A DNA stretch of 57,661 nt from an uncultured bacterium. Lineage in GTDB: Bacteria > Zhuqueibacterota > QNDG01 > DTFT01. The position numbers and the translations under genes are program-made. The stretch's first letter is position 1. Every line of letters begins with the position of its first letter. The DNA is taken from positions 1 to 57,661 of the forward strand of contig CAVTNR010000013.1 in assembly GCA_963736115.1 (NCBI GenBank), given 5' to 3'. Under the pieces are notes generated by a model. That model did no database searches. It was not told the DNA's origin and was given only the letters and a program-made list of their open reading frames with translations. This document shows positions 3,977-18,273 of this stretch, in pieces.

Positions 3977-4425
3977 ATGGAAAAACTGAAGATTCTCTTT
4001 CTCTGCACCGGAAATTCCTGCAGAAGCCAGATGGCCGAAGGATGGGCGAGGCATCTCAAGGGGGATCAAATAGAGTCATATTCGGCGGGCATCGAGATAC
4101 ATGGATTGAATCCGTCTGCCGTCAAGGTGATGGCAGAGGCGGGCGTGGACCTCTCAGGTCACAGGTCCAAGCACCTGAATGAGCTGAAGGATCAAACGTT
4201 CGATTATGTGATCACCGTGTGTGACGCGGCGAACGAGTCCTGCCCGTTCTTCCCGGAAAGACTGTTCGGATCCACAAGGGGTTCGATGATCCGCCCAGGC
4301 TCGCGAAATCCGCTGCAACGGAAGAGGAGGCGTTCAGCCATTACAGGCGGGTCCGGGATGAAATCCGGGCATTTGTGGAGGGGATGCCGGAGAATCTGAT
4401 GGAATCCGCAAAAGCATCCGGCTGA
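3977..4425 (+). CDS. arsC: Thioredoxin-coupled arsenate reductase (LMW-PTP fold) with an apparent 1-nt frameshift near 4252-4256
   Basis: ILFLCTGNSCRSQMAEG...TVCD...CPFFP; adding one base restores GKTVRIHKGFDDP...YRRVRDEI, ending TGA 4423-4425. Confidence 0.9.
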
Positions 4426-4631: not shown

Positions 4632-6437
4632 TCAGAACGCCTGTCCCATGTTGAAAATCACCTGCATGCCAGGCTCGTGGTCCCTGCGGTGCACAATGAA
4701 GCCCAGATCCAGCCGGAGCACACCCACGGGTGTCGATGCCCTGGCGCCGAACCCGGCTGTATGCCGGATCTCGTCCAGGCTGGCGGAGGACGCATCGGTC
4801 CAGACATTGCCGATATCCCAGAAAATCGCGGCGGAAACCATCCGGTAAACAGGCACACGCCATTCCGCGGCGTTCCAGACGAATTTGAATTTTCCTCCCA
4901 GCGGGACGCGATTGCGGTCCAGGGGCCCGGCGGTTCTGTACGGAAAACCCCTGAGCGCGGACGCATCTCCGGCGTAGAAGCGTTCGTTCAGGGGGATGTC
5001 CCGGTCCGGGTTCAAAGCGCCGATCCACCCGATCTCCACGGCGGAAGCCAGCACGGTGCGGCCGGCCGTCGGCACATAGAACCGCGCGATCAGATTCGAA
5101 CGGCCGAAGGACGCCGATTCCTTCGACAGCCCGCCCGCCAGTTCATTGCGCAGTTCCACGGTGGAACCCCGGCCTGGATTGAACGGGTTGTCCCGGGTGT
5201 CGCGGCCGGCCGTCAGGCCGATGCTGTGGATGTAGCTGGTCAGGGCCGTGGGCACGGGATCGATGCGGACGCGGACCAGGCGGGAGGCTTCGTTGATATA
5301 CTGGCCGGACAACCGGATTCCATTCCGCCACTGTCTTCCGACGGTCACGCGGCCGCCGAAGCGTTCGACGCCGTAGCCGGGCTCCTCCGTCCGGTCCGCC
5401 CGGACGATGATGTCCGTGCGCCACGGCCTTCCGAATGTCCAGGGTTCGGAGAATGAGCACTCGGAGCCCCAGTACTTGAAGCTCCCCTTCAGCGAAACGC
5501 CGAACTTTCTCGCGGTTCCGGCCGCATTGGTGTTGAACAGCTCCATGCCGCCCCTGACTTTTTCCCAGTATCCGTATCCAACGGAAACATTGAACTCTCC
5601 GGATTTCTTTTCCTTCAATTCCAGGACCATGTCCCGTTCCGACGCGTCCGCAGCGGTCGAGTCCGCCGGGCGGATGAACACGCTCTCGAACAGGCCTGTC
5701 AGGTACAGTTTTCTCTGCGATTCCAGCAGGTCCCGGACCCGCACCGTGTCGCCTTCCTGAAAAGTCAGTTCGCGGAGCACCACGGACGCACGGGTTTTCT
5801 CCAGCGGGGGAAGCCGTATGGCGCCGATCCGGGCCGGAAACCCTTCCTTGATCCGGATGCTCACGAACGCTTCGGCCGTTTCAGCGTTGATCTGGGACTC
5901 GATGTCCGCTCGGCCGTCAATGTAACCGCGGTCCGAGAGGTTCCTGAGAATCGCATTCCGCGACTCGTCGAGCAGCGGCCGTTTCAAAAGGCTGCCGCGC
6001 GAGATCGGGAGCCAGCCGAGGATCAGAGAGTCACGGAACGCGACGTTTCCTGCGAGAGAGATCATGCCGATCGGTGAAGGACGGCCCTCGGAGACCCGTA
6101 TCGAAATGCGAACCTTTTTTTTCAGGGAATCGATCCGGACTTCCGCGTTCCCGACCGCGGCCTCCCAGTACCCGTGGTCGTGGTAGCAGTCCACAAGGCT
6201 CCGGAGGTCACCCTCGAGTATCCGGGCGACGTACGGGGCCTTTCTGAAACTGGAGGAGGGCCGGGTGATCATGCACCGTCTCAATTTCGATTCGGGAACG
6301 GCCCTGGCGCCGGCTATTTCCAGACCGGCGACGGAGTATCCCCGGGGCGCGTCCGGGAGCGCGTCAACAGCCGCGGCCGGCCGAACCGACAGGCCGATCC
6401 AGACCATGGCAGGAAGAAGAAGTCGATGTCCGCTCAT
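4632..6437 (-). CDS. tamA: Omp85-family outer membrane protein, TamA/BamA-like (~3 POTRA domains plus barrel)
   Basis: Signal peptide; POTRA repeats (YHDHGYWEA, DRGYIDG, LYLTGLFESV); ERFYAGDASALRGF; ends FNMGQAF; directly downstream of tamB. Confidence 0.8.
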   Translation of the reverse strand: MSGHRLLLPAMVWIGLSVRPAAAVDALPDAPRGYSVAGLEIAGARAVPESKLRRCMITRPSSSFRKAPYVARILEGDLRSLVDCYHDHGYWEAAVGNAEVRIDSLKKKVRISIRVSEGRPSPIGMISLAGNVAFRDSLILGWLPISRGSLLKRPLLDESRNAILRNLSDRGYIDGRADIESQINAETAEAFVSIRIKEGFPARIGAIRLPPLEKTRASVVLRELTFQEGDTVRVRDLLESQRKLYLTGLFESVFIRPADSTAADASERDMVLELKEKKSGEFNVSVGYGYWEKVRGGMELFNTNAAGTARKFGVSLKGSFKYWGSECSFSEPWTFGRPWRTDIIVRADRTEEPGYGVERFGGRVTVGRQWRNGIRLSGQYINEASRLVRVRIDPVPTALTSYIHSIGLTAGRDTRDNPFNPGRGSTVELRNELAGGLSKESASFGRSNLIARFYVPTAGRTVLASAVEIGWIGALNPDRDIPLNERFYAGDASALRGFPYRTAGPLDRNRVPLGGKFKFVWNAAEWRVPVYRMVSAAIFWDIGNVWTDASSASLDEIRHTAGFGARASTPVGVLRLDLGFIVHRRDHEPGMQVIFNMGQAF

Positions 6438-6465
6438 CGGCGGATCTCCCGGAGTTGGGGCTTGT

Positions 6466-9400
6466 TCATTGAAACTTGATTTTATACTTGAGGTCGATGC
6501 CGGACCGGCCGATACGGTCCACGTGGCCTTCAACCGAGAGACGGCGGTCAATCCACACATTCAAACGCACGGATTCCTCGTTCATGTGTCCGACTGTTGT
6601 CGAATAATTGAGGGCGACGCGGCGTGAAACCCGTTTTGAGGCCTGGAGGCGCGGGCCCCACTCCTTGTCGAACCGGAACAGGTTCCCCTCAATGGACATG
6701 GAATCGAGCCGGAACAAGGTTCCCATATAATTTTCCGCCGTGGAGGCAACCCGCCGGCTGGAGAGCGATTTGGCTCTTTCCATGAGCACATCGGACATGC
6801 CTCCATTCCTGTCGGATGCGGGAAGGTTCCGGTTGAGCTCGTCCCGCGTGGCGCCGAACGTGAGCAGGGTGAGGATGTTCGTCCTGGATGCCTGGGGTAC
6901 GGAGGCGAGGTCGAAATCCGCCTGGTCCAGCGGGCCCCGGAGCGTCAGGGTCACGACATAGGGCGTTCCTGAATAGGTCTGGTAATTTTTCAACCGGGCT
7001 TCGGCCTCGATGTCCAGAATGGGATTGATCCGGCCGGCAGTGGCGAAATCCGCGGTGCCTTTTTTCAGCGTGAAAGCATGATCCAGATACTGCACCGTTC
7101 CCTCGTGCGTGGTCAGACGGCCAGTTAATTCGGGGTGTGAGACGCGGCCGGACACAGCCAGTTCCGGCTGGAAACGGACCCGTGCGAGGTTGTTGTCGAT
7201 CCAGACATCGCGGCCGCCGGTGATTCGGACATTCAGTTCCATGCCGGCAAGTTCATCCGGAAGCGGCGATGCGGTCCGGGCCTGAGACAGGGTCATGGAC
7301 AGGAAATCGGAAGCTTTCATGGTCTGCTGATAGCGGCATTCGCCGAGCTTGATCTCGCCGGTCAGCCGGTTCGCGTTCCCGTCCCGCACCAGACTCAGGC
7401 GGCTCCTGTCCACGGTACAGGTCAGGCGGCCCGGTTCCCGGATCCGGATGTTCCGGAGTTCGGCGTTCAGGTTCCAGGCGATGAGCCTGCCGCTTTCGTG
7501 CCGGAGACGGCCCCGGACATCCGCCGACCCGCCCAGAACGGGCATGGACAGGGTGTCGACAGCAATCGCGTCCCCTTCAAATGTCATGGAGAAACGGCCG
7601 TTTCCCGCGCCCAGGTCGGTCCCGGCGACGGGAAAATTGATGCCGCTCCCCGACAAACGACCGGTCAGGAGCGGTGATCCGGGCCGGCCGGAGAAATCGA
7701 GATCGACCCGGATCACGCCGCTCATGTTTTTCACCGGGGACGATCCGGGAAACAGAGAGTCCAGAACGGCCAGGTGGAGCGAATCCACGTTCAAGGAGCC
7801 CCGCATGGAATCGGATGCGAAAAAGAAACCGGAGCGGATGCCGGCCGGCCGGAGGAACAAGGCGGTCCCGCGCATGCAGGGCTTCTCTCCGAGTGAGTAT
7901 CGGATGTCCGAGGAGAGAGCCAGGGGGATACCGTTGACGCGGCCCGCCAGGCTTTCGATACGTAACGTGGAATCCAGAAAGACAGCGGCCCAGGAGACCG
8001 AGTCGATTTTTGGCAGTCCGCTCCCGCGGAACGAAGCGCGGGAAACGGACCACCGTCCCTCCAAACCGGGATCAGCGGGCGTTCCCGTCATCCGCAGATC
8101 GAATGTCGACCGTCCGCTGATCAAAGGAGACCCGGCCAGGAATGGACGGATCAGTTCCAGGCGTATGTCCTGTCCGGTCAGGCGCAGGTCAAAGGGGTTT
8201 GCCGCGTCGGGCTTCCATGAACCGTTACGGTCCGGGACGACCGGGATCGATCCGGCCAGTACAATTGCATTCGAGTCCGGCGTGAAGGAAAAACGGTTGA
8301 TCCTGAGCATGCGCTGTTCCAGCCCCGCGTCCAGAAAGACGGAGTCCGCGGTCATCTCTCCGATCCGAAACGGCCGGACGGCCATGCGAAGAGACCCAGC
8401 GGGATCACCGTCTCCGGGATTCAGAGACGCGGTCATGCGGATGCGGCCGCCCATTTTCAGCGTGTCTTCCGGCCCGAAGGCCCGGGCCGCGCATTGAACC
8501 TCTCCGCTTTCCGCGGACCAGCACCGTTTGCGGATTTCCAGGAGCACGCGGAAGGGGCCGGCCAGGGAGTCCAGCGCCCAGGTGCGGGCCTGAATCCGGG
8601 CGAGCGTGAAATCGGCTTCCGCTTCAGCGGAGTCCCCATGAACCCGGTAAAGACCGGTGACGCTGATCGGTCCCGCGGTGCTCAATCCCGTCGGCAGAAA
8701 AAGAGCCGGGAAAGAATCGTCCAGACGGACGGAAAATGCGCCGTTGGAAGAAATGGGAGATCCGGAAATTCCGGATGATCCGGAAAGCCAGGCACCGTCC
8801 AGACTTGCGGAAAGGCCTTTGCCCGTGATCCGGGCATCCGCCCTGCCGTTTCCGATGTCCAGGTCGATCCGAAGCGGATCGAGCGGCCTGCCGCTGATTT
8901 TCAGGTTCTCCGCCGAGATCGTCGCGGCTGCGGAGAGATGACCCAGGTCATCCGGGAATGCGTCGATCCGGATGTCGCCTGAAAGAGTGCCCCGGACCGG
9001 AGCGGGTGAAGTCATGAACCATCCGGAGAGAAAAGGGATGTCCATCCGACGGAAAGAGGCGTGAAACCGGGCATGCCGGCCGCCGCGGAATGTCCACGCG
9101 CCGGATCCGGAAACAGATCCGGCGCCGCCTCTCATCATCAATGAATCCAAAATGACGGAATCCCCCGTCCAGGCGCCGCTGATACGGACATTCCGGATGT
9201 CTCCGCTCCGGAAGGACAGGTTGTCGGCTTCAATGCTCCAGGCCGCCGAAGGCCGGCTCAGGCCGCAGTCCGCATTCAGCCGTCCTTCCACGATACCGGA
9301 TACCGGCAGCCGTCCGCCCGCGTTCTGAAAAAGTCGGCGCGGCCAGAATTCGACGGCCGTCCGGAGCGCAAGGCCGCCCTGTATGCGCCAGTCATTGCCG

Positions 9401-10112
9401 ACAGGCGCGATCTTTCCCTCTGCTGTCATCCGGCCGCCGGGGATTTCCGCTTCGCAGGACCGGATCGTGACCGCAGAGGAGTCCACGATTCCGGTCAGGA
9501 CCGGCTGATGAATACCGATGGCCGCGTCGTTCAGGAAATACCGGACTGAATCCGCGGATACCCGGAACAGCACTGAGGGATCGGATGCCGGCCGGGCCGC
9601 CTGCAGAACCATGCGGTCGATCGAAGCCACGGTGGAATCCGACCGGTTTTCATAAGCAGTTAGAAAACGCAGGCGGATTTCGGTGTTTATCGGAAAACGT
9701 CCGCCGATGGCAGGCAGTGATGCCCCGGATTTTGGCCGGTCGTCATTATCGATCAGACGGCCGATGCGGCGGACATCGACCGAAACCGTGTCCACTCGGA
9801 TGGAAACGAAAAAGCGGCCGCTCCGCAGCCATTCCGGCAGGGGTGAATGAAGCTGGATGCGGGAAATTGCGAGCAACAGGGGGAATCCGCCCCCGCTTCG
9901 GAGATCCGGACGGATTCCATCCGGATTCCGCGGATCAGGCCGATGCGCAGGACACCGATCGAACAGTCGGCTCCCGCGTCCCGGCGCACGGCGGAGATGA
10001 TCTGTTTTTCAAGCCAGGCGGATGCGATGCCGCAGGATGTACGAATCGCGGCGATGGATGCGATCAGCAGGACAGCGAACAGCAGGAGGATTCTGGCGGG
10101 TCTGGAAATCAC
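6466..10112 (-). CDS. tamB: Translocation and assembly module TamB (DUF490) with an apparent frameshift in the G5 run at 9879-9883
   Basis: N-terminal TM (ARILLLFAVLLIASIAA) in ORF 9753..10112 joins ORF 6466..9876 if one base is added; C-terminus INPILDIEAE...SGIDLKYKIKFQ is TamB-like. Start uncertain. Confidence 0.8.
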
Positions 10113-10185
10113 GGCGTACCGGCGTTCGCGTTTCGGCCCGTCCGGCCGGGCGGTCGGACTCCGGGGGCTGTCCGGCGCATGCGGC

Positions 10186-10944
10186 TCACTGGATTTCCTT
10201 CAGTCTCCCGGCGGCGAGCCGCGCTTCTTCCGTTCCAGGGAATTCCCGCACGATTTTCTCCAGGTCGACCCTGGCGCCGGCCGTGTCGTTGAGATGGAGG
10301 CGGCAGTAAGCCGCCTTGAGACGGGCCGCGCGGACCTTTCCGCTCTTCGGATATGCTTCGATGACTTTCCGGAATTCCGCGAGCGCGGCCGCGTAATCCT
10401 TTTTCACGTAAATAATCTCGGCGATCCAGTACTGCGCATTTCCCGAGTATTCGCTGGCCGGATACAGCCGGAGGTATTCGCGGAATTCTCCGGCCGCGAG
10501 GTCGTAGTTTTTTCTGGAAAGGTCGAGATAGGCCGCGTCGTAAAGCGTTTTGGCGCTTTCCGGGGACGGCGGGGATCCGGAATCGCCGGCGGCCGCATCC
10601 CCTGCGCCGGCCGGTCTGTCGAAATTCTGCATCATCCGCGACATCCGGCTACCGGTGTCGTCGAGCAGGTTGCGCAGATACGCCGTCTCCTCCCGCAGGG
10701 TGGACATTTCGGAAAGCAGGTCCGCTTTAACGGAAGCGTTGGAGTCGCGGAGGGACTGGATGGAACGGTTGATTTCCTTGAGCTGTTCCCGCATCTGCTC
10801 ATTGTCCTTCTGCAGGCCCGTGAGGCGGTCCTGGATGGCGGCCGTATCTTCCTGAAAGCGGACGATCTCCTTTCGCGAGGCGCAGCCCGCGATCAGGCCC
10901 GCAACGAGCAGAAGTATCGGGAATAAACCGGTCTGTTCTTTCAA
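10186..10944 (-). CDS. cpoB: Tol-Pal system protein CpoB/YbgF (coiled coil plus TPR), lipoprotein-type signal
   Basis: LIAGC lipobox, coiled coil, LYDAAYLD...YPASEYSGNAQYWIAE TPR; TTG start with GGAG RBS (alternative ATG 10986). Confidence 0.88.
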   Translation of the reverse strand: MKEQTGLFPILLLVAGLIAGCASRKEIVRFQEDTAAIQDRLTGLQKDNEQMREQLKEINRSIQSLRDSNASVKADLLSEMSTLREETAYLRNLLDDTGSRMSRMMQNFDRPAGAGDAAAGDSGSPPSPESAKTLYDAAYLDLSRKNYDLAAGEFREYLRLYPASEYSGNAQYWIAEIIYVKKDYAAALAEFRKVIEAYPKSGKVRAARLKAAYCRLHLNDTAGARVDLEKIVREFPGTEEARLAAGRLKEIQ

Positions 10945-10998
10945 GGGCCACTCCGGATTATGATAAGATAACGAAAAGCAGGCCATGAATCAACCCTC

Positions 10999-12261
10999 TT
11001 ATGGACGGGAGGGGAAGGGCGACCAGGCAGGCGACAGGTTTCCGCCCCCGCGGGTGACCTGGAAAAGGCCCGTTCCGTCATGCCGCATGAGAAAGATATC
11101 CCAGCGTCCCCCCGGATTGGCCGAAAACGCGATGTGCAGGCCGTTCGGAGACCAGCAGGGATCCTCGTGCGAATACGGATCGTCCGTCAGCTGCACGCGG
11201 TTCTCGCCGTTCACGTCGATGACGCAGACCTGAAAACCGCTCCGGTCCCGGGTCACATAGGCGATGCGGTCGCCTTTCGGCGACCACGCGGGCGAATCGT
11301 TGTACCCGCCCTCCCAGGTCAGGCGTCTCACGTTGCCGCCCGAGGCGTCCATCAGGTAGATCTGGGGCGAGCCGCTGCGGTCCGAGGTGAAGGCGATCTC
11401 GCGTCCGTCCGGGGACCAGGCGGGCGAGCAGTCGATGGCCGGATTGTCGGTGAGCCTGCGGAGCGCGCCGCCGGTCCCGTCCGCGCAGAACAGGTCCGGG
11501 TTGCCGTTCGTGGTGAGGGTGAATGCGATCTGATTCCCGTCCGGTGACCAGGCCGGCGAAGTCTGCATGCCCCCGGCCGCGGTGAACCGGGCCGGACGCC
11601 CGGCTTCCAGGTCGAATACAGCCAGCCTCGGCCGGCCGGACGCGTAACTCGTATAGCAGAGCCGTCTTCCGTCCGGGGACCAGCAGGGCGACAGATTCAG
11701 CGAGTCGTCCAGGGATACGCGGCGGATGTCCTCTCCGTCCATGTCCGAAACGAAGACCGTGCCGGCCCGTCGGCGCTTGCCGACATAGGCGATGCGGGTC
11801 GATGCGATTCCCCGCTCTCCCGTGAGATGCAGGAGTACGGCGTCGGCCCATTCATGCGCCCGCACGCGGAAATCCGCGTCTGTGGCGCGGAACACGCTTT
11901 CGAGGATCACGGATTTGGTTGAGGCGTCCTTCAGCCTGGCGCGTATCTCCACACCGCCGTCCTTCGCGGAACACCGGGTTTCGAGAAAAGCCGATGCCTC
12001 CCGGGGCACGGCGCCGGACGGCGCGGGCAGAACACGGATCAGTCCGCTGAAGTCCAGATCGGCGATGAGGATGTCCCGCATCCGCGGGATCCATGCGGCA
12101 TGGCGCACGGATTCGAAAGGGGGAACGGCGACCGGGATGGCGGTGAAAGCGCCGGTCTGGACCTTCAGATAATAATCCTTCTGTCCGGCCGCGGCGGGCA
12201 GGACCGTTATCAACAGCAGGCAGACAGCGGCCCGTATCACAGAGAACATGCGGTTTCTCAC
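10999..12261 (-). CDS. tolB: TolB beta-propeller protein
   Basis: IPVAVPPF, ADLDFSG, LTGERGIASTRIAYV and repeated SPAWSPDG (PD40) motifs. Confidence 0.93.
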   Translation of the reverse strand: MRNRMFSVIRAAVCLLLITVLPAAAGQKDYYLKVQTGAFTAIPVAVPPFESVRHAAWIPRMRDILIADLDFSGLIRVLPAPSGAVPREASAFLETRCSAKDGGVEIRARLKDASTKSVILESVFRATDADFRVRAHEWADAVLLHLTGERGIASTRIAYVGKRRRAGTVFVSDMDGEDIRRVSLDDSLNLSPCWSPDGRRLCYTSYASGRPRLAVFDLEAGRPARFTAAGGMQTSPAWSPDGNQIAFTLTTNGNPDLFCADGTGGALRRLTDNPAIDCSPAWSPDGREIAFTSDRSGSPQIYLMDASGGNVRRLTWEGGYNDSPAWSPKGDRIAYVTRDRSGFQVCVIDVNGENRVQLTDDPYSHEDPCWSPNGLHIAFSANPGGRWDIFLMRHDGTGLFQVTRGGGNLSPAWSPFPSRP

Positions 12262-12884
12262 GGAAGCGCCTCGAATGTGACATGTATTTTCAGAAGGTCC
12301 TGCGCCATGCCGCCGGGCGGTGGAGGAAACCGGCCCGCGTTCATGACCGCCCTGAGCGCTGCCTGATCAAAAAGGTAGAAACCGGTCTGGGCCTCGAGTT
12401 CCACGTCCGATACGCGGCCGTCCCGGTGAATGGTGAAACCGACCTGCGCCGTCCGGGACTCCAGGCCCCCGGTCCGTCTGTGCGGAGGGGACCAGTTTTC
12501 CTGTATCCGGAGACGGATCAGATTCAGGTAGTAGGCATAGGGAAACGATCCGCCTTCGACGCGCACGGTCGGCTCGGACGCGGGTCCGGGCTTCCGGTCC
12601 CCGGAAACGGACGGCTTTCTGTCCGCGCGGGAGGGTGACGGTTCCGGCGGCTTCTCGACGGGCCGCTTTTTCTCGGGTTCAGGCGAATTCTCCTGCGGGA
12701 CAACAGACGCGGCCGGCGCCGCATCCGGTTCCGGCCCTGCTTCTTCCTCAGGGGCAGGCGCCATATGGAGAGAAACGCGCAGGAACGGCGCCGGTTCCGG
12801 ATGGAAGGGCGTCCAGCGGCCGAGAAAAAGCGACCCGAAAAAACATGCATGCAAACCGAAGGAGAGCGTCAACCAGCGTTTCAT
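12258..12884 (-). CDS. tolA: Short TolA/TonB-family energy transducer
   Basis: TM with SxxLH (LSFGLHA), Pro/Glu-rich linker, C-domain YLNLIRLRIQENW...FDQAALRAV; between tolR and tolB. Confidence 0.75.
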   Translation of the reverse strand: MKRWLTLSFGLHACFFGSLFLGRWTPFHPEPAPFLRVSLHMAPAPEEEAGPEPDAAPAASVVPQENSPEPEKKRPVEKPPEPSPSRADRKPSVSGDRKPGPASEPTVRVEGGSFPYAYYLNLIRLRIQENWSPPHRRTGGLESRTAQVGFTIHRDGRVSDVELEAQTGFYLFDQAALRAVMNAGRFPPPPGGMAQDLLKIHVTFEALP

Positions 12885-13282
12885 GGGACAGGTCCGGGCG
12901 AAACCACGAGCCCCACGTCCGGTATGTCCGCCCGGCGGATGCGGTCCATCACCTCAATGACCCGGCCGTACGGGAGTGCCTGATCCGCTTCCAGCAGAAC
13001 CGGCCGACCCGGAGACTCGATACGGATGCGGACGAGAACGGCGCGCAGATCGTCCGGGGGCACGGGTTTTTGATCCACGAACAGGCCGCCCTCCGCATCC
13101 AGTGTCACGAGAACCGGGCTGCCGGCCGGCACGGGCGGAGCTGAGGCCCTGGGCAGGCGGACCGGAATGCCGCCTTTGAACGCGGGCGCCGCGATGATGA
13201 AGACAATCAGCAGAACCAGCGCCACGTCCACCAGATTGGTGACATTGATGTCCGCGATCGGCGCGATCCGCTCCCGTCTCAT
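12881..13282 (-). CDS. tolR: TolR/ExbD family protein
   Basis: DINVTNLVDVALVLLIVFII; ADQALPYGRVIEVMD. Confidence 0.88.
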   Translation of the reverse strand: MRRERIAPIADINVTNLVDVALVLLIVFIIAAPAFKGGIPVRLPRASAPPVPAGSPVLVTLDAEGGLFVDQKPVPPDDLRAVLVRIRIESPGRPVLLEADQALPYGRVIEVMDRIRRADIPDVGLVVSPGPVP

Positions 13283-13956
13283 GCCGCGCCTTCCCCGTCG
13301 AACCGTTTTTTCGATTCATCCGAGAAAATGTCGAGCTTGTCCTCGATTCTCCTCAGTTCCGCGGCTGTCCAGTTGTGGGCCGCGAGCGCCGGTATCGCGA
13401 CGGCCAGTCCCGCGGCTGTGGTGATGAGCGCCTCGGCGATGCCCGGGCCGACGGCCGAGAGCTCAGCCGTTCCCTGGAGGCCGATCTGAATGAAGGATTC
13501 CATGACACCCCAGACAGTTCCGAAAAGCCCGAGAAAAGGGCTGATCCCCACGATCGTGGAAAGCAATGTCAGGTTTCGCGACGGAAAGTCCAACGCCTCG
13601 GAGAGCGTGGAACGCACCAGGAGCGCCGTATCCGGCGCGATCGGCGCGGACACGCTACGTTCTGCGGCGGCCGCCTGCCGTTTCTGCCGGAATGCATGGT
13701 ACTCCCGGTATGCCCGCATGTAGAAAACAGCCGAGGCGCAATGCGGGTATTCTCGGCTCAGCCTGTACAGGTCCGCACTGCCGGGATTTTTCCGGACGAC
13801 CGCATCGAAGGCTTTTGACTGGACGCGGATTTTCCTGAATGCGAAGATTTTTTCAAGGATCACGGCCCATGAAATGACGGACAGAATACCCAGTACGATC
13901 AGTACCGATCGTGCAACCCAGCCTGTATTGAGGATGAGGCTGATGATGTTTCCCAT
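13279..13956 (-). CDS. tolQ: TolQ (MotA/TolQ/ExbB proton channel)
   Basis: SPFLGLFGTVWGVM; VGPGIAEALITTAAGLAVAIPA. Confidence 0.92.
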   Translation of the reverse strand: MGNIISLILNTGWVARSVLIVLGILSVISWAVILEKIFAFRKIRVQSKAFDAVVRKNPGSADLYRLSREYPHCASAVFYMRAYREYHAFRQKRQAAAAERSVSAPIAPDTALLVRSTLSEALDFPSRNLTLLSTIVGISPFLGLFGTVWGVMESFIQIGLQGTAELSAVGPGIAEALITTAAGLAVAIPALAAHNWTAAELRRIEDKLDIFSDESKKRFDGEGAA

Positions 13957-14008
13957 GGCGGATGAACCTCCAGACGGTTATGTGGAACGGGCCTTGCCAC
14001 AATAATGG

Positions 14009-14023
14009 GCAAATGAAATGCCA
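14009..14023 (-). promoter_or_regulatory. Putative sigma54 (-24/-12) promoter for the tolQ operon
   Basis: Minus strand TGGCATTTCATTTGC = TGGCA-N6-TTGC with exact GG-N10-GC spacing, ~50 nt upstream of the tolQ ATG. Confidence 0.7.
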
Positions 14024-14126
14024 TTTCAGCCATCTTGCCGTAAACGGTTGTATTTTTCCGGATAAGTGTTTATCTTTCCGATGGTTCAAGGGACGTTAAT
14101 TCGATGTTTATTCAAGGGGATAACCC

Positions 14127-15614
14127 GTGAAGTGGAATATCAGGCCCAGGATGATAGCCGGTTTCGTCAGCATGAGCCTGTTATTCATTATATTCGGGGC
14201 TGTGGCCATATTATATACAGACCGCATGCTGGGGAAGACGCGGGACATGTTCAAGGAGAATGTTTCCAGCCTCAAGGCTGCTGAAGAACTGGAAATCGCG
14301 CTCCTCGACATGAAAGGGATTGCGGCCAATTATCTTCTGGACGGGCAGACGCAATGGCTGAACATTTTCAGGGAAAAGGACAGGATATTCCGCAGATGGT
14401 TCGGCGTGGCCTGGGCGCAGGCCCGCACCGAAGAGGAAAGACAGCTCCTGTCGGAAACAGAAGCACTGTTCGGCCGCTATCAGAGTCAGTACCGGTCCAT
14501 GCGCAGGCTCCACCAGGAGGGGGATGCGGCGGCCGCGCGACTGATTCTGACCGGCCCCATGCGGGACACGTTCAGCGCGATCTACGAGAAATGCGAGAAT
14601 TACCTCTTCATCAACGAAAAGATCATGCACCGCACCCGCGAACAAATGGAGCGGGAGAACCGCATTGTCAGAACCGTCATGATCGTTTTTGCGGTTGGAA
14701 GCATCCTGCTGGGCCTCGTCTTCGGCGTTCTATTCGCGAGGAGCATCACCCAGCCGCTGTACCGTCTGATCGTGAACGTCAAAAGCGCGACGGAGGAAAA
14801 TGTCCTGGAAGAAATGGACATTTCCGACGAATCCGAGTTTGACAAGCTGGATAAGCACATCCGCATGCTGATTGAACGGATCCATCGGACGAACCGCGAT
14901 CTGAGCCAGAGCCGCCGCCTGCTGATCCACTCGGAGAAGCTGGCCATGCTCGGATCCGTGGCCGCGGGGCTCGCGCACGAGATACGCAACCCCCTGACGT
15001 CCATCAAGATGCTGATCTACTCCCTCCGGGACAAGGCCGGGGGGCATACCCGGATCAGCCGGGATTACGAGGTCATTCTCCAGCAGATCACGCGCATGGA
15101 GTCCTTTCTGCAGAGTTTTCTCGACTTTGCCCGGCCTCCGGAACCGGAATTCAAGGATGTCCGGCTCAGGGAGACGCTCGATCAGGCCCTGCACCTGATG
15201 CGGCCGCAGATCGAGGGCGCCCGCATCAGGCTGAAAACGCAATGGATCGAGCCGGATCCGGTCGTATGCGCGGATCCCGGCCAGTTGAAGCAGGTCGTGG
15301 CCAATCTGATACTCAATGCCTTACAGTCGATGGCCGGCGGCGGCCGGCTGTCGATCGAAACCGCAGTGACCGGGGGTCAGGGCGGTCAGGCCGAAATCCG
15401 AATTTCGGACAACGGTCCCGGGATTCCGGAGGAATTACTGCCGTCCGTTTTCGAGCCCTTCACCACCACCAAAGAGAGTGGAACCGGTCTCGGCCTGGCG
15501 ATCAGCCAGCAGATTGTCAAGAATCACGGGGGGATCGTGCGGGCAGAAAACATCAGGCCCCGAGGCGCCCGGTTCATCGTTCAATTGCCGTTAGCGGAGA
15601 GGCCTGCCGAATGA
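14127..15614 (+). CDS. Membrane sensor histidine kinase (periplasmic four-helix-bundle sensor, HisKA, HATPase)
   Basis: Two TMs flanking a helical domain; AHEIRNPL, NLILNALQ, DNGPGI and GTGLGL boxes. Confidence 0.93.
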   Translation: MKWNIRPRMIAGFVSMSLLFIIFGAVAILYTDRMLGKTRDMFKENVSSLKAAEELEIALLDMKGIAANYLLDGQTQWLNIFREKDRIFRRWFGVAWAQARTEEERQLLSETEALFGRYQSQYRSMRRLHQEGDAAAARLILTGPMRDTFSAIYEKCENYLFINEKIMHRTREQMERENRIVRTVMIVFAVGSILLGLVFGVLFARSITQPLYRLIVNVKSATEENVLEEMDISDESEFDKLDKHIRMLIERIHRTNRDLSQSRRLLIHSEKLAMLGSVAAGLAHEIRNPLTSIKMLIYSLRDKAGGHTRISRDYEVILQQITRMESFLQSFLDFARPPEPEFKDVRLRETLDQALHLMRPQIEGARIRLKTQWIEPDPVVCADPGQLKQVVANLILNALQSMAGGGRLSIETAVTGGQGGQAEIRISDNGPGIPEELLPSVFEPFTTTKESGTGLGLAISQQIVKNHGGIVRAENIRPRGARFIVQLPLAERPAE

Positions 15615-17035
15615 AAAGCCAGATACTCATTGTTGACGACGAGGAAAGCGTCCGGTATTCCTTCATGCGTTTTCTCCAGGACCAGCCGTTCGAGGTCATC
15701 GAGGCGGCCAGCGGGGAGGAGGCGCTGAGCCGGTGCACAGGCCGCATTTTCGACCTCATCTTCCTCGACATCAAACTTCCCGATCGGTCCGGTCTCGATG
15801 TGCTCAAAGAGATCCGGGAAAAGGATCCCAAGGCGACGGTCATCGTCATGACGGCCTTCGGCACGACCGATACGGCCATACAGGCCACCAAATACGGCGC
15901 CTATGACTATGTGCTCAAGCCTTTTGATATGCCGGCCATCGAGAGTCTCATCCGCAACGGCCTGAAGAACAACTATATCCTGCGCAGAAAGGTTACCTTT
16001 CGGCCGCAGGAAACGGCGGCAGAGGCCGGCGCGGACCGCATCATCGGGCGGTCCGCGCCCATGCAGAACCTCTACAAGATCATCGGCAAAGTGGCGGAAA
16101 GCAACGTCACCGTGCTTCTGCGGGGGGAGAGCGGAACCGGAAAGGAACTGATCGCCAGGGCCGTTTACCAGCACAGCGGAAGGGCGGACCGGTCCTTCCT
16201 GGCCGTGAACTGCGCCGCCATCCCCGAGACGCTTCTCGAGAGCGAACTGTTCGGCTACGAGAAGGGGGCGTTTACCGGAGCGGTCCGCCGCAGGATCGGC
16301 AAATTCGAACAGGCCGACCGGGGCACGCTTTTTCTGGACGAAATCGGTGATATGTCGCTTTCCACGCAGGCCAAGATACTCCGGGTGCTCCAAGAGGGAC
16401 GGTTCGAGCCCCTGGGGAGCGAAAAAACAGTGACGGTCGACGTCCGCGTCATCGCCGCGACGAACCGGAATCTTGAGAAGGGAATCCGCGAAGGCGGATT
16501 CCGAGAGGATCTGTATTACCGGATCAAGGTGGTCTCCATCCAACTGCCCCCCTTGCGCGAGCGGATACAGGACCTGGAGGAGCTGACCGGCTATTTTCTG
16601 GACAAATACGGAAACGCATACCGGAATGAGGTCATGAAGCTCGCCCCCGGACTTCTGGAGGAGATGCGGAATTATCCCTGGCCCGGGAACATCCGGGAAC
16701 TGGAGAATGTCCTGAAGCGGGCGGTTCTGCTCAGCAAGACCAGCGTCATTCCGAAGGAACTGATGCAGGAGGAACTGGAGCATCGTGCCGCGCAAGCGGA
16801 GGCGGACACCGATCCTGCGGACCCCGATGAGGCCGTCGAACCGGGAGAGAACGGGCCGCGACCGGAAGGCATCACTCTTTATGAAGCCGTGATGTCCAGG
16901 ACGGAGAAAAAGCTTATTTCACGGGTACTGAAAGAGACGAGGGGCAATCAGGTGCAGACAGCGAAAATACTGGGCATTTCCCGTATGACTCTGCGTAAAA
17001 AAATCAAAAAATATGGAATGGAGGATACGCCATAA
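15611..17035 (+). CDS. NtrC/AtoC-family sigma54-dependent response regulator
   Basis: Receiver (ILIVDDE, LDIKLPD), GESGTGKE, GAFTGA, FLDEIG, WPGNIREL, Fis-type HTH; overlaps the kinase stop (ATGA). Confidence 0.96.
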   Translation: MKSQILIVDDEESVRYSFMRFLQDQPFEVIEAASGEEALSRCTGRIFDLIFLDIKLPDRSGLDVLKEIREKDPKATVIVMTAFGTTDTAIQATKYGAYDYVLKPFDMPAIESLIRNGLKNNYILRRKVTFRPQETAAEAGADRIIGRSAPMQNLYKIIGKVAESNVTVLLRGESGTGKELIARAVYQHSGRADRSFLAVNCAAIPETLLESELFGYEKGAFTGAVRRRIGKFEQADRGTLFLDEIGDMSLSTQAKILRVLQEGRFEPLGSEKTVTVDVRVIAATNRNLEKGIREGGFREDLYYRIKVVSIQLPPLRERIQDLEELTGYFLDKYGNAYRNEVMKLAPGLLEEMRNYPWPGNIRELENVLKRAVLLSKTSVIPKELMQEELEHRAAQAEADTDPADPDEAVEPGENGPRPEGITLYEAVMSRTEKKLISRVLKETRGNQVQTAKILGISRMTLRKKIKKYGMEDTP

Positions 17036-17041
17036 ACAAAT

Positions 17042-17078
17042 TGTATAGATCATGGACAATCTGTAAATAGATTGGACA
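17042..17078. promoter_or_regulatory. Tandem candidate enhancer (UAS) sites for a sigma54 activator
   Basis: TGTATAGATCATGGACA (17042-17058) and TGTAAATAGATTGGACA (17062-17078): both TGTA-N8-GGACA, 20 bp apart, 80-115 bp upstream of a sigma54-like site. Confidence 0.5.
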
Positions 17079-17156
17079 TCCACTTTTCATAGCCCTCCAG
17101 AATTCCGCAAAATACAAATATTTAATAATATTAGATTTGTGCATTATGCCGGGTTT

Positions 17157-17171
17157 CGGCACAAAAATTGT
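17157..17171 (+). promoter_or_regulatory. Putative sigma54 promoter for the lipoprotein-pal operon
   Basis: CGGCACAAAAATTGT (GG-N10-GT, one deviation at -12); IHF-like TATTAAATATTTG on the minus strand at 17115-17127. Confidence 0.5.
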
Positions 17172-17219
17172 TTTAATCCTGCTGAAAGGGGCGCGCCCCC
17201 TCCTGCATGGAAAGGCGAT

Positions 17220-17744
17220 ATGAACCGATTGTTTCCACTCATTTGTGCAGTGCTGATGGGAATGAGTTGCGGCTCTATCCATGAAACTCCGCAATCGGAC
17301 CCTGTTCTGGATGACTGCTCCCTGGATGCGGTTCTTGAAAAATCAACGCATATCCAGTCCCTGCTCGAAGGGGCTGTGCGTTACGAAAAGAACGGAAACG
17401 CAGTGGCCGCGTCGAGAAACTGGCGTCAGGCCAGGGCTGAGTATTATCCTTTTCATTACTTTTATCTGCCTCTGGGCAATGCAAAAATCCGCATTTCCCA
17501 GGCGGCGAGATGCCATGCCATGCATGATCCTGCGGGCGCCGAGGCGGAACTCACCCGTACTCGGCTGATTCTGCTTGAGGTCCGGTCGAAAATGACCGGT
17601 CATAATATCCGGGGAATTGACCAGCTGTTGACGGATACGGAGAGCCTGGAAAAGGATATCCGGACCTTGAAGCAGGGAAGTGAACGTTTCGTCTCCCTGG
17701 CGTCGGAGATCAATGACCTGGTTTCCATTCAAACAATCAGATAG
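17220..17744 (+). CDS. Hypothetical alpha-helical lipoprotein
   Basis: MNRLFPLICAVLMGMSC lipobox; AAAGG RBS; 19 nt before pal. Confidence 0.7.
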   Translation: MNRLFPLICAVLMGMSCGSIHETPQSDPVLDDCSLDAVLEKSTHIQSLLEGAVRYEKNGNAVAASRNWRQARAEYYPFHYFYLPLGNAKIRISQAARCHAMHDPAGAEAELTRTRLILLEVRSKMTGHNIRGIDQLLTDTESLEKDIRTLKQGSERFVSLASEINDLVSIQTIR

Positions 17745-17763: not shown

Positions 17764-18273
17764 ATGAAAAACTGGATTCTTACGGTCTTGGCGGCATCCG
17801 TCCTGATGGCGGGATGCAGTAAACAGGTTCAGAAAAATCCGGACGGTGAAGGCAGCATTACGGAGGAGAAAGTGAAGGCGCCCGCGGAACCGCGTCAGGA
17901 GAGGCAGGCGGAACCCAGGCCGGAAAAGAGCGGCGCCGGAATCATACTGGACAACGTGTACTTCGACTATGACCAGCATTCGCTGACGTCCCAGACCCGC
18001 GGCATACTCGCCGGGCACAGCCGGACGCTCAGGGAAAATCCGGATCTCCGGATCCGGATCGAGGGGCATTGTGACGAACGCGGCACCATCGAATACAACC
18101 TGGCTCTCGGGGAGCGCCGTGCGGTTTCCGTGAAGCGGTATCTGACGGACGCCGGAGTGGACGAAAGGCGCATCTCGACCATCAGCTACGGCAAGGAGCG
18201 TCTTGCGGATCCCGGGCAGAACGAGCAGGCATGGGCTCTGAACCGGCGTGCGGTATTCATCATCACCCGCTGA
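17764..18273 (+). CDS. pal: Peptidoglycan-associated lipoprotein Pal
   Basis: LMAGC lipobox; VYFDYD, IEGHCDERGTIEYNLALGERRA, SYGKE, NRRA. Confidence 0.96.
   Translation: MKNWILTVLAASVLMAGCSKQVQKNPDGEGSITEEKVKAPAEPRQERQAEPRPEKSGAGIILDNVYFDYDQHSLTSQTRGILAGHSRTLRENPDLRIRIEGHCDERGTIEYNLALGERRAVSVKRYLTDAGVDERRISTISYGKERLADPGQNEQAWALNRRAVFIITR

Follow-up and report, generated by a model that had tools for sequence, protein, structure and literature searches.

The 57,661-nt stretch of DNA analyzed here, referred to as the window, comes from an uncultured bacterium of a Bacteroidota-related phylum, Zhuqueibacterota (contig CAVTNR010000013.1 of assembly GCA_963736115.1), and carries the genes of Tol-Pal, a core envelope and cell-division machine whose regulation is little studied. 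The cluster is arranged in two arms, a leftward arm with the order tolQ-tolR-tolA-tolB-cpoB-tamB-tamA and a rightward arm with the order kinase-activator-lipoprotein-pal (Table 1), so that a two-component system lies between tolQ and lipoprotein-pal. This arrangement had been claimed in a preliminary description, together with a GAFTGA motif in the activator and sigma-54 promoters facing both arms, and is borne out by the reading of the genes, their Pfam domains and the GAFTGA motif, and by the presence of rpoN in the genome (425 bits in a profile search, above cut-off). All of tolQ, tolR, tolA, tolB, pal and cpoB are present, the tolA-like protein scoring 46.8 bits against TIGR02794, under the NCBIfam cut-off of 59.45. 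Neither a second tolR nor a second tolA was found by tblastn in the genome (assembly 87% complete), in which the sole other tolQ-like match is 27% identical; judged from the assembly, the cluster is the organism's only Tol-Pal system and not an accessory copy. The analysis points to an envelope two-component system that probably drives lipoprotein-pal through a pair of tandem dyads and a sigma-54 promoter, with a tolQ arm that is likewise predicted to be activator-dependent.

Table 1. Genes and regulatory features of the window (sigma-54 matrix ranks are genome-wide)
Feature	Positions	Strand	Basis
TamA-like Omp85/POTRA protein	4632-6560 (start 6437 or 6560)	-	Pfam Omp85 1.3e-42, POTRA 8.7e-22
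tamB, two frames	6466-10112	-	Pfam TamB PF04357 3.9e-45, 155 bits
cpoB/ybgF	10186-10986	-	TIGR02795 103.8 bits, cut-off 90.1
tolB	10999-12261	-	Pfam TolB_N and five PD40 repeats
tolA-like, TonB_2 C-terminal domain	12258-12884	-	PF13103 2.1e-14
tolR	12881-13282	-	Pfam ExbD/TolR 3.2e-25
tolQ	13279-13956	-	Pfam MotA_ExbB 8.6e-30
Left sigma-54 promoter facing tolQ, TGGCATTTCATTTGC (TGGCAT-N5-TTGC; GG-N10-GC)	14023->14009	-	Matrix 21.2, rank 13
Genus-conserved block of ~40 nt, sigma-70-like TTGTAT(14048-53)-17-TATCTT(14071-76)	14036-14078	+	Three-species alignment
Sensor histidine kinase	14127-15614	+	Pfam 4HB_MCP_1, HisKA, HATPase_c
Single box-like site TGTATATAATATGGCCA, low-confidence activator site	14203-14219	-	Box matrix 14.4; inside kinase gene
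NtrC-class response regulator/enhancer-binding protein (activator)	15611-17035	+	Pfam REC, AAA+, HTH_8; GAFTGA in translation
Tandem candidate activator sites, two TGT-N11-ACA dyads (TGTATAGATCATGGACA, 17042-17058; TGTAAATAGATTGGACA, 17062-17078)	17042-17078	+	Sequence read and box matrix
AT-rich tract resembling an integration host factor (IHF) site, between dyads and right promoter	17115-17129		One-mismatch match at 17117-17129 (-)
Right sigma-54 promoter facing lipoprotein-pal, CGGCACAAAAATTGT (CGGCAC-N5-TTGT; GG-N10-GT)	17157-17171	+	Matrix 16.2, rank 46
Lipoprotein, no known family, first gene of right arm	17220-17744	+	ATG at 17220
pal (peptidoglycan-associated lipoprotein)	17764-18273	+	TIGR02802 132 bits, cut-off 125.35

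The activator has the domain composition of an NtrC-class bacterial enhancer-binding protein, with a receiver domain (REC, PF00072), a GAFTGA-containing AAA+ domain (PF00158, 5.8e-73) and a C-terminal Fis-type helix-turn-helix (HTH_8, PF02954), and its translation shows the motif EKGAFTGA, the Walker A sequence GESGTGKE and an acidic pocket (DD...D). The kinase consists of a first membrane span, a periplasmic four-helix-bundle sensor, a second membrane span, HisKA and HATPase_c; its conserved periplasmic domain covers residues ~34-180. The use of sigma-54 in this organism was assessed across its 3.34-Mb genome, in which a codon-usage model called 2554 genes (85% coding). The pattern TGGCAC-N5-TTGCW has 41 matches with no more than one mismatch, and because 22 of the 41 are intergenic and lie no more than 300 nt upstream of a gene on the same strand, sigma-54 promoters are, by position, clearly in use. 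A sigma-54 matrix was built from 40 other sites in the genome, with the window contig excluded, and gives 50 matches at a score of at least 16, with 37 intergenic upstream of a gene and seven overlapping called genes. Matrix scoring of this kind had been proposed in the preliminary description, and both promoters given there were recovered with the ranks listed in Table 1.

The evidence is most extensive for the right arm, where the CGGCAC-N5-TTGT promoter and the two 20-bp-phased TGTA-N8-GGACA boxes were read as described, the boxes being the dyads TGTATAGATCATGGACA and TGTAAATAGATTGGACA and the promoter CGGCACAAAAATTGT. The pair begins just past the activator stop codon, the dyads are 20 bp apart from start to start, and the first box starts 116 nt from the -24 GG, within the ~80-150 nt that characterizes enhancer-dependent promoters. 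In the window, TGTA-N8-GGACA occurs twice against an expectation of 0.06, and 1 of 100 shuffles reaches two. The promoter elements CGGCACA..AATTGT are invariant in the three species of the genus, and the transcript is predicted to start near 17183.

The same layout of candidate activator sites, AT-rich tract and -24/-12 promoter is found far beyond the genus. Among 167 genomes of the phylum, orthologues of the activator (54-89% identity, the next matches dropping to 50% or less) are present in 15; this count includes G162, which lies outside the locus analysis, leaving 14 loci. The best forward -24/-12 match follows the activator gene in 12 of the 13 loci with enough downstream sequence, and 10 of the 13 score at least 11.6 at this activator-adjacent promoter, for which the chance per random 900 nt of the window genome is 0.021. 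The promoters of the sister species G001 and G003 score only 7.9 and 9.6 but align to the window site. Dyads phased by 20 bp, with 115-135 nt from box start to GG, occur in 10 of the 13 downstream regions, or in 11 of 14 loci when the divergent spacer of G051 is added.

The dyads are also specific to this activator family. A box matrix trained only on seven loci outside the window genus gave held-out scores of 30.9 for the window, 31.5 for G003 and 22.0 for G001, compared with a best score of 12.6 in 27 control loci whose activators are paralogues (at most 48% identity). The G051 dyads, also outside the training set, score 36.4 and are located in the spacer upstream of the kinase. Here (L051, G051:C164, 4117-4424) the order is barrel gene, TGGCATGTAATTTGA, tandem dyads (4270-4306) and kinase, with TGGCATGTAATTTGA lying ~90-127 nt from the dyads on the other strand and 49 nt before the barrel gene (read by eye), a layout which shows that members of this activator family apparently serve divergent promoters as well. 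Because the box matrix is AT-biased and lights up the AT-rich contig C21, the uniqueness of the dyads was assessed with the strict pattern TGT-N11-NCA-N3-NNT-N11-ACA, which has six matches in the genome; the pair at 17042-17078 alone is fully intergenic, and alone has a sigma-54 site 30-250 nt downstream. The many false matches of the box matrix on this contig (genome G000) fall in its first ~10 kb, which is AT-rich.

At the IHF-like site of the preliminary description, a match with one mismatch to the IHF consensus WATCAANNNNTTR is present. The sister species keep AT-richness alone, and the two HU/IHF-family genes of the genome score under the IHF cut-offs. Genome-wide, IHF-like sites with no more than one mismatch occur in 10 of 38 sigma-54 upstream regions and in 792 of 9289 control windows, a comparison in which the GC contents differ (41% versus 51%). 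The sequence AATACAA-N4-TTA occurs in both arms, at 14041-14054 (-) and 17112-17125 (+), 17 and 31 nt from the respective -24 elements, in each case on the promoter side of the more distal conserved elements.

The orthologous kinase-activator pair nearly always has Pal, OmpA-family, Tol or outer-membrane genes as neighbors. The same-strand run following the activator holds an OmpA/Pal-family gene in 10 of the 14 loci, and 6 of 14 have tol genes alongside. The layouts of G001 and G003 are identical to that of the window, including the divergent arrangement. In G022, a single strand carries kinase, activator, a 341-aa gene of no known function, a REC-only gene, tolQ, tolR, tolA, tolB, a 499-aa gene, pal and cpoB, so that this Tol-Pal operon also has a sigma-54 promoter by way of the activator-adjacent site. 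G079 has kinase, activator, tolA, tolB, a 205-aa gene, pal and cpoB; G116 has activator, REC-only gene, tolA, tolB and a relative of the window lipoprotein; and G093 has a glycosyltransferase, a lipoprotein relative, and then partial matches to pal and cpoB. An OmpA/Pal-family gene is likewise present in G026, G161, G149 and G166. Of the four loci without one in the run, one has a PG_binding_1 gene (G160, along with an outer-membrane barrel) and one a barrel gene divergent from the kinase (G051), while G118 has no Pal, OmpA, Tol or outer-membrane gene within the sequence in view. Judged from this gene order, the orthologous pair is kept beside genes for outer-membrane-to-cell-wall tethers across the phylum. 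Moreover, the periplasmic domains of 13 orthologous kinases share invariant residues, which suggests a common cue.

The activator-adjacent promoters are atypical at -12. None of 12 orthologous promoters has a C at this position (GT in seven, GG in three, GA in two), a count whose independence is overstated by the relatedness of the loci, although these span nine families of the phylum; by contrast, C is found in 35 of 46 promoter-position sites elsewhere in the window genome that score at least 14 when the -12 column is ignored. In its GG, spacing and TTG, and in having dyads upstream and an activator gene next to it, the right promoter agrees with the sigma-54 type, and it would nonetheless work like a sigma-54 promoter with an unusual -12 element. 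Excerpts of the literature state that the -12 C is kept in 96% of sigma-54 promoters and restrains basal transcription (PMC4551910, citing Barrios 1999; Wang, Guo and Gralla 1999). The statement in the preliminary description that sigma-54 promoters are silent without activator may thus not apply to the right promoter, whose TTGT lacks this C and so may leak. Such leakage would suit a housekeeping gene such as pal, and the uniform loss of the -12 C in this family offers a natural test set for the role of this base in restraining basal sigma-54 transcription.

In the left arm, the TGGCA-N6-TTGC site of the preliminary description was read as TGGCATTTCATTTGC, with GG at -24 and GC at -12, upstream of a gene and in a genome that encodes rpoN. 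It lies 52 nt from the tolQ ATG, and the transcript is predicted to start near 13997. The 15-mer is identical in the three species of the genus (the window, G001 and G003), while the 13 nt directly upstream vary. It is the only recognizable promoter toward tolQ in the 170-bp spacer: no sigma-70-type match facing tolQ reaches the scanner threshold of 9 of 12, and the next minus-strand gene upstream is 5 kb off, past four plus-strand genes, leaving no same-strand source of read-through. The tolQ arm is therefore predicted to be activator-dependent, with the local activator as the first candidate. A kinase-based scan of contigs for further left spacers returned only the two sister species and four unrelated kinases, and a metagenome scan with TolQ returned one locus (36% identity) that lacks a sigma-54 site.

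In the same spacer, a block of ~40 nt conserved in the genus contains an inferred sigma-70-like promoter for the kinase, scoring 8 of 12 and hence below the scanner threshold of 9 of 12. The weak left box claimed at 14049-14064 lies within this block; the sequence is there (TGTATTTTTCCGGATA), but its dyad form is lost in G001 and G003, in which TGTA/GGATA becomes TGAA and GTATA or GAATA, and it was rejected as an activator site. A further site, TGGAACGGGCCTTGC (TGGAAC-N5-TTGC, GG-N10-GC; 13983-13997, +), is kept in three members of the genus and is aimed at the kinase; it scores below 8 with the matrix, lies in the tolQ leader, and its -12 end is 11 bp from that of the tolQ promoter. Its conservation may reflect either a second sigma-54 promoter interleaved with the first or no more than a conserved tolQ leader. 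In orthologous loci, sigma-54 autoregulation of the kinase operon finds little support, the best upstream site scoring at least 10 in only 1 of 13.

Taken together, these features suggest a mechanism in which a periplasmic cue would trigger autophosphorylation of the kinase and phosphotransfer to the REC aspartate. Phosphorylation would lead the activator to bind and assemble at the two dyads; with the DNA looped over the AT-rich tract, it would open the right promoter by ATP hydrolysis, raising expression of lipoprotein-pal above some activator-independent basal expression that a promoter without the -12 C may also allow. A second activator-dependent promoter, the one facing tolQ, would serve tolQRAB-cpoB and probably tamB-tamA. 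Genes and motifs, with their conservation, specificity and geometry, are observed features of the locus, to which the binding events, the transcript starts, the signal and the extents of the operons are fitted as predictions.

Several points weigh against this reading. On the right, the promoter has GT in place of the GC expected at -12, three of the 13 loci (G079, G116 and G166) lack tandem dyads, and G166 also has no clear -24/-12 site after the activator. There is no terminator in the window between the activator and lipoprotein genes, and read-through could add to pal expression. By contrast, in G160 and G161 (L053 and L054) the hairpin and T-run of an intrinsic terminator end right at the -24 element TTTTGGCAT, and this hairpin is a predicted insulator of the target operon from the activator operon. 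On the left, the tolQ-kinase spacers compared come from three species, all of one genus, and share 87% identity overall, making for a shallow footprint; no tandem dyads were found within 320 nt of the promoter, where the enhancer architecture of the right arm is accordingly absent; and a housekeeping promoter before tolQ may have gone unrecognized by a scan whose consensus may not suit this phylum. The single box-like site TGTATATAATATGGCCA, 197 nt upstream of the GG of the tolQ promoter and third in box score in the 57.6-kb window after the 17042-78 pair, encodes AILYTD, a protein motif conserved across the phylum, so that coding constraint can explain it. Outside the genus, a sigma-54-like site with a score of at least 12 is found within 450 nt upstream at only 5 of 27 tolQ loci, while the other 22 score below 8; sigma-54 control of Tol is, on these motifs, apparently recurrent in the phylum but not the rule. 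Finally, the training sites of the sigma-54 matrix were picked by consensus, which makes the ranks partly circular, and the gene calls are home-made. Footprinting, as proposed in the preliminary description, thus upheld the right layout across the phylum and the left 15-mer in three species, with the high overall identity of the left spacer limiting what the latter can tell.

The clearest of the five loci with a sigma-54-like tolQ site is G024 (L097, G024:C62, ~6640-11431), in which the canonical promoter TGGCTTGACTTTTGC (TGGCTT-N5-TTGC) precedes a tolQRAB-pal-cpoB operon of the classical type by 73 nt and neither a kinase nor an activator gene is present within 16 kb. The palindrome GGACAATCTGTCC is found ~125 nt upstream of this promoter; in the 96 loci fetched, the only other place with its 11-mer GGACAATCTGT is where the two boxes of the window meet.

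The preliminary description had gone further and proposed a signal-switched Tol-Pal/TAM regulon (TAM, translocation and assembly module), with the two arms under the control of the same regulator. This is conceivable though somewhat doubtful; the tolQ promoter would have to be reached from the dyads at 17042-78, ~3 kb away, or from the box at 14203-14219. Control of the right arm is supported by conserved dyads and promoter, both arms have sigma-54 promoters beside the only local activator, the activator-adjacent promoter of G022 heads an operon with tolQRAB, pal and cpoB, the G051 dyads serve a divergent promoter, and the G024 tolQ promoter shares GGACAATCTGT with the window sites through GGACAATCTGTCC; tamB, moreover, follows cpoB by 74 nt with no terminator between. 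For the left arm, however, such control is a matter of deduction: its promoter has no tandem dyad nearer than 320 nt, conserved codons account for the single box, and the activator has no orthologue in G024 at E<=1e-135. Activation from 3 kb, possible in principle from work on NtrC, draws on that precedent, and TAM co-transcription on gene spacing.

It is rather unlikely, in turn, that the local pair drives lipoprotein-pal only and that another sigma-54 activator of the genome serves the tolQ promoter. Candidates for the latter exist, since the genome contains about a dozen paralogues of the activator (13 matches at E<=1e-60, itself included), and the absence of dyads from the left arm, the sigma-54 tolQ promoter of G024 with no such pair nearby, and the difference in kind between the promoters (TTGC for tolQ, TTGT for lipoprotein-pal) would all agree with such a division. 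The divergent arrangement is nevertheless kept in all three members of the genus, and the spacer yielded no other conserved dyad, its 40-nt block reading better as a kinase promoter.

That the left -24/-12 is no working tolQ promoter at all, being a silent or repressive sigma-54 site or a chance match, with Tol constitutive from an unrecognized housekeeping promoter, is improbable. In its favor, the bare motif TGGCA-N6-TTGC is not significant by itself (one in the window versus 0.40 expected, at least one copy in 33 of 100 shuffles), conservation in one genus weighs little given the 87% identity of the spacer, 22 of the 27 tolQ loci elsewhere lack such a site, and E. coli has sigma-54 sites without promoter function (PMC4591121); against it, the site ranks thirteenth in the genome, is correctly oriented 52 nt from the ATG and is invariant while its upstream flank varies, and neither a sigma-70-type match facing tolQ nor a same-strand upstream gene for read-through is at hand.

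The reading preferred here, in which the pair drives lipoprotein-pal and the tolQ arm is also activator-dependent, would mean that an envelope machine regarded as always on may be switched by a signal. A more far-reaching view, held tentatively and best treated as speculation, is that across the phylum the tether (Pal, often with Tol) is under a dedicated sensor-activator, that promoters avoiding the -12 C are leaky yet boosted on demand, and that in the window genus, whose only tolQRAB operon would lack any other promoter, sigma-54 and an activator are required for envelope integrity and cell division. The sensor-activator pair provides a clonable handle, with a defined DNA site, two promoters and a well-conserved periplasmic sensor domain, through which it could be asked which envelope cue adjusts outer-membrane tethering. 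Sigma-54 two-component systems with envelope regulons are already known; what is new is Pal/Tol as the predicted target, together with the unusual -12 feature. The pair also provides a clear further example for the proposal that control of the cell exterior is the main role of sigma-54 (PMC3162934).

Among described systems, the closest analogue in logic appears to be ZraPSR of E. coli and Salmonella, a membrane kinase and NtrC-class regulator for envelope stress. The ZraR regulator activates a divergent pair of sigma-54 promoters where it is itself encoded, and one of the two serves the gene of a small, helical protein of the periplasm (portions of PMC4987338). ZraS is the second-best NCBIfam match of the window kinase, but the proteins are not orthologues (169.2 versus a cut-off of 479 for ZraS; 363.3 versus 760 for ZraR, NF007689). 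In addition, the predicted targets in the window are Pal and the Tol genes rather than the ZraP chaperone, the sensor is a four-helix bundle, and zraSR is autoregulated whereas the window-type kinase operon lacks a sigma-54 promoter in 12 of 13 loci. The best-scoring families for activator and kinase are NtrBC and AtoSC, which share the REC-AAA+(GAFTGA)-HTH_8 architecture and the placement of activator sites ~100-140 nt upstream of -24/-12, with an AT-rich or IHF-type tract between. The window proteins again fall under the equivalog cut-offs (NtrC TIGR01818, 473.7 versus 558.6; AtoC NF008469, 472.8 versus 714; AtoS, 218.4 versus 646), and the activator was rejected as an orthologue of NtrC, AtoC or ZraR on these curated NCBIfam cut-offs. 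NtrB is cytoplasmic, while the window kinase has a periplasmic sensor, and these systems regulate nitrogen or acetoacetate metabolism, as opposed to the envelope genes of the predicted regulon.

In E. coli, tol-pal is transcribed from sigma-70 promoters before ybgC/tolQ and tolB/pal, and RcsC has been reported to influence tolQRA. The window cluster has the same gene set as proteobacterial tol-pal (tolQ, tolR, tolA, tolB, pal and cpoB), but is split into divergent arms by the kinase-activator pair, has a -24/-12 element at the start of both arms, an extra helical lipoprotein gene before pal, and tamB-tamA after cpoB. No dedicated signal-transduction system for Tol-Pal was found in the literature searched, nor any account of tol-pal being controlled by sigma-54 or by a two-component system, including in the main text of PMC4641369, PMC12316311, PMC3162934 and PMC2725144, whose supplementary regulon tables fall outside this coverage and could hold a case.

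The inclusion of TAM in the regulon, as the preliminary description had it, stands as far as gene order goes: a TamB with a DUF490-type domain and its Omp85/POTRA partner follow cpoB, the tamA-like gene being the last of the leftward same-strand run. The tamB GTG at 10112 is 74 nt after the cpoB stop, and because of this spacing and the lack of a terminator-like site in the gap, which also has no sigma-54 match scoring at least 8, co-transcription of TAM with tol is plausible. In the window, tamB is read in two frames, with the N-terminal membrane part at 10112-9753, the remainder at 9876-6466, and a change near 9880 that reflects either a real frameshift or a fault in the assembly; the tamB of G001 and G003 is a single continuous frame beginning at a GTG shortly past cpoB (GVISRP...).

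The lipoprotein that precedes pal has no Pfam or NCBIfam match. Its AlphaFold2 model is an all-helical, generic helical bundle (predicted local distance difference test score 83), for which Foldseek found nothing in the PDB at E<=0.001, and its atlas matches are all below 0.9. Identification as an accessory protein of the ZraP/CpxP/Spy type was thus considered and rejected, given that neither a family profile nor a PDB structure matches. A word-based homologue search returned seven proteins, every one at least 55% identical, and more distant relatives (24-26% identity) stand directly before pal in G116 and G093. The lipoprotein leaders of the three genus members carry GC-rich inverted repeats that differ from one another (17190-17202 in the window and equivalents in L031 and L032; GGGGCG/CGCCCC, GCTCC/GGAGC and GGAGC/GCTCC), ~10-20 nt 5' of a conserved ribosome-binding site. 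RNAalifold across the three leaders gives a hairpin of -5.4 kcal/mol with two compensatory pairs.

Some related loci contain additional genes. In L033, L034, L049 and L052-L054, the first genes after the activator-adjacent promoter encode a 333-341-aa protein of no known family (the G022 and G026 versions share 47% identity), a stand-alone REC protein, or both. Neither is present in the window genus, which hints at an extra phosphorelay or feedback branch. Type-IX-secretion sorting domains also occur in related loci.

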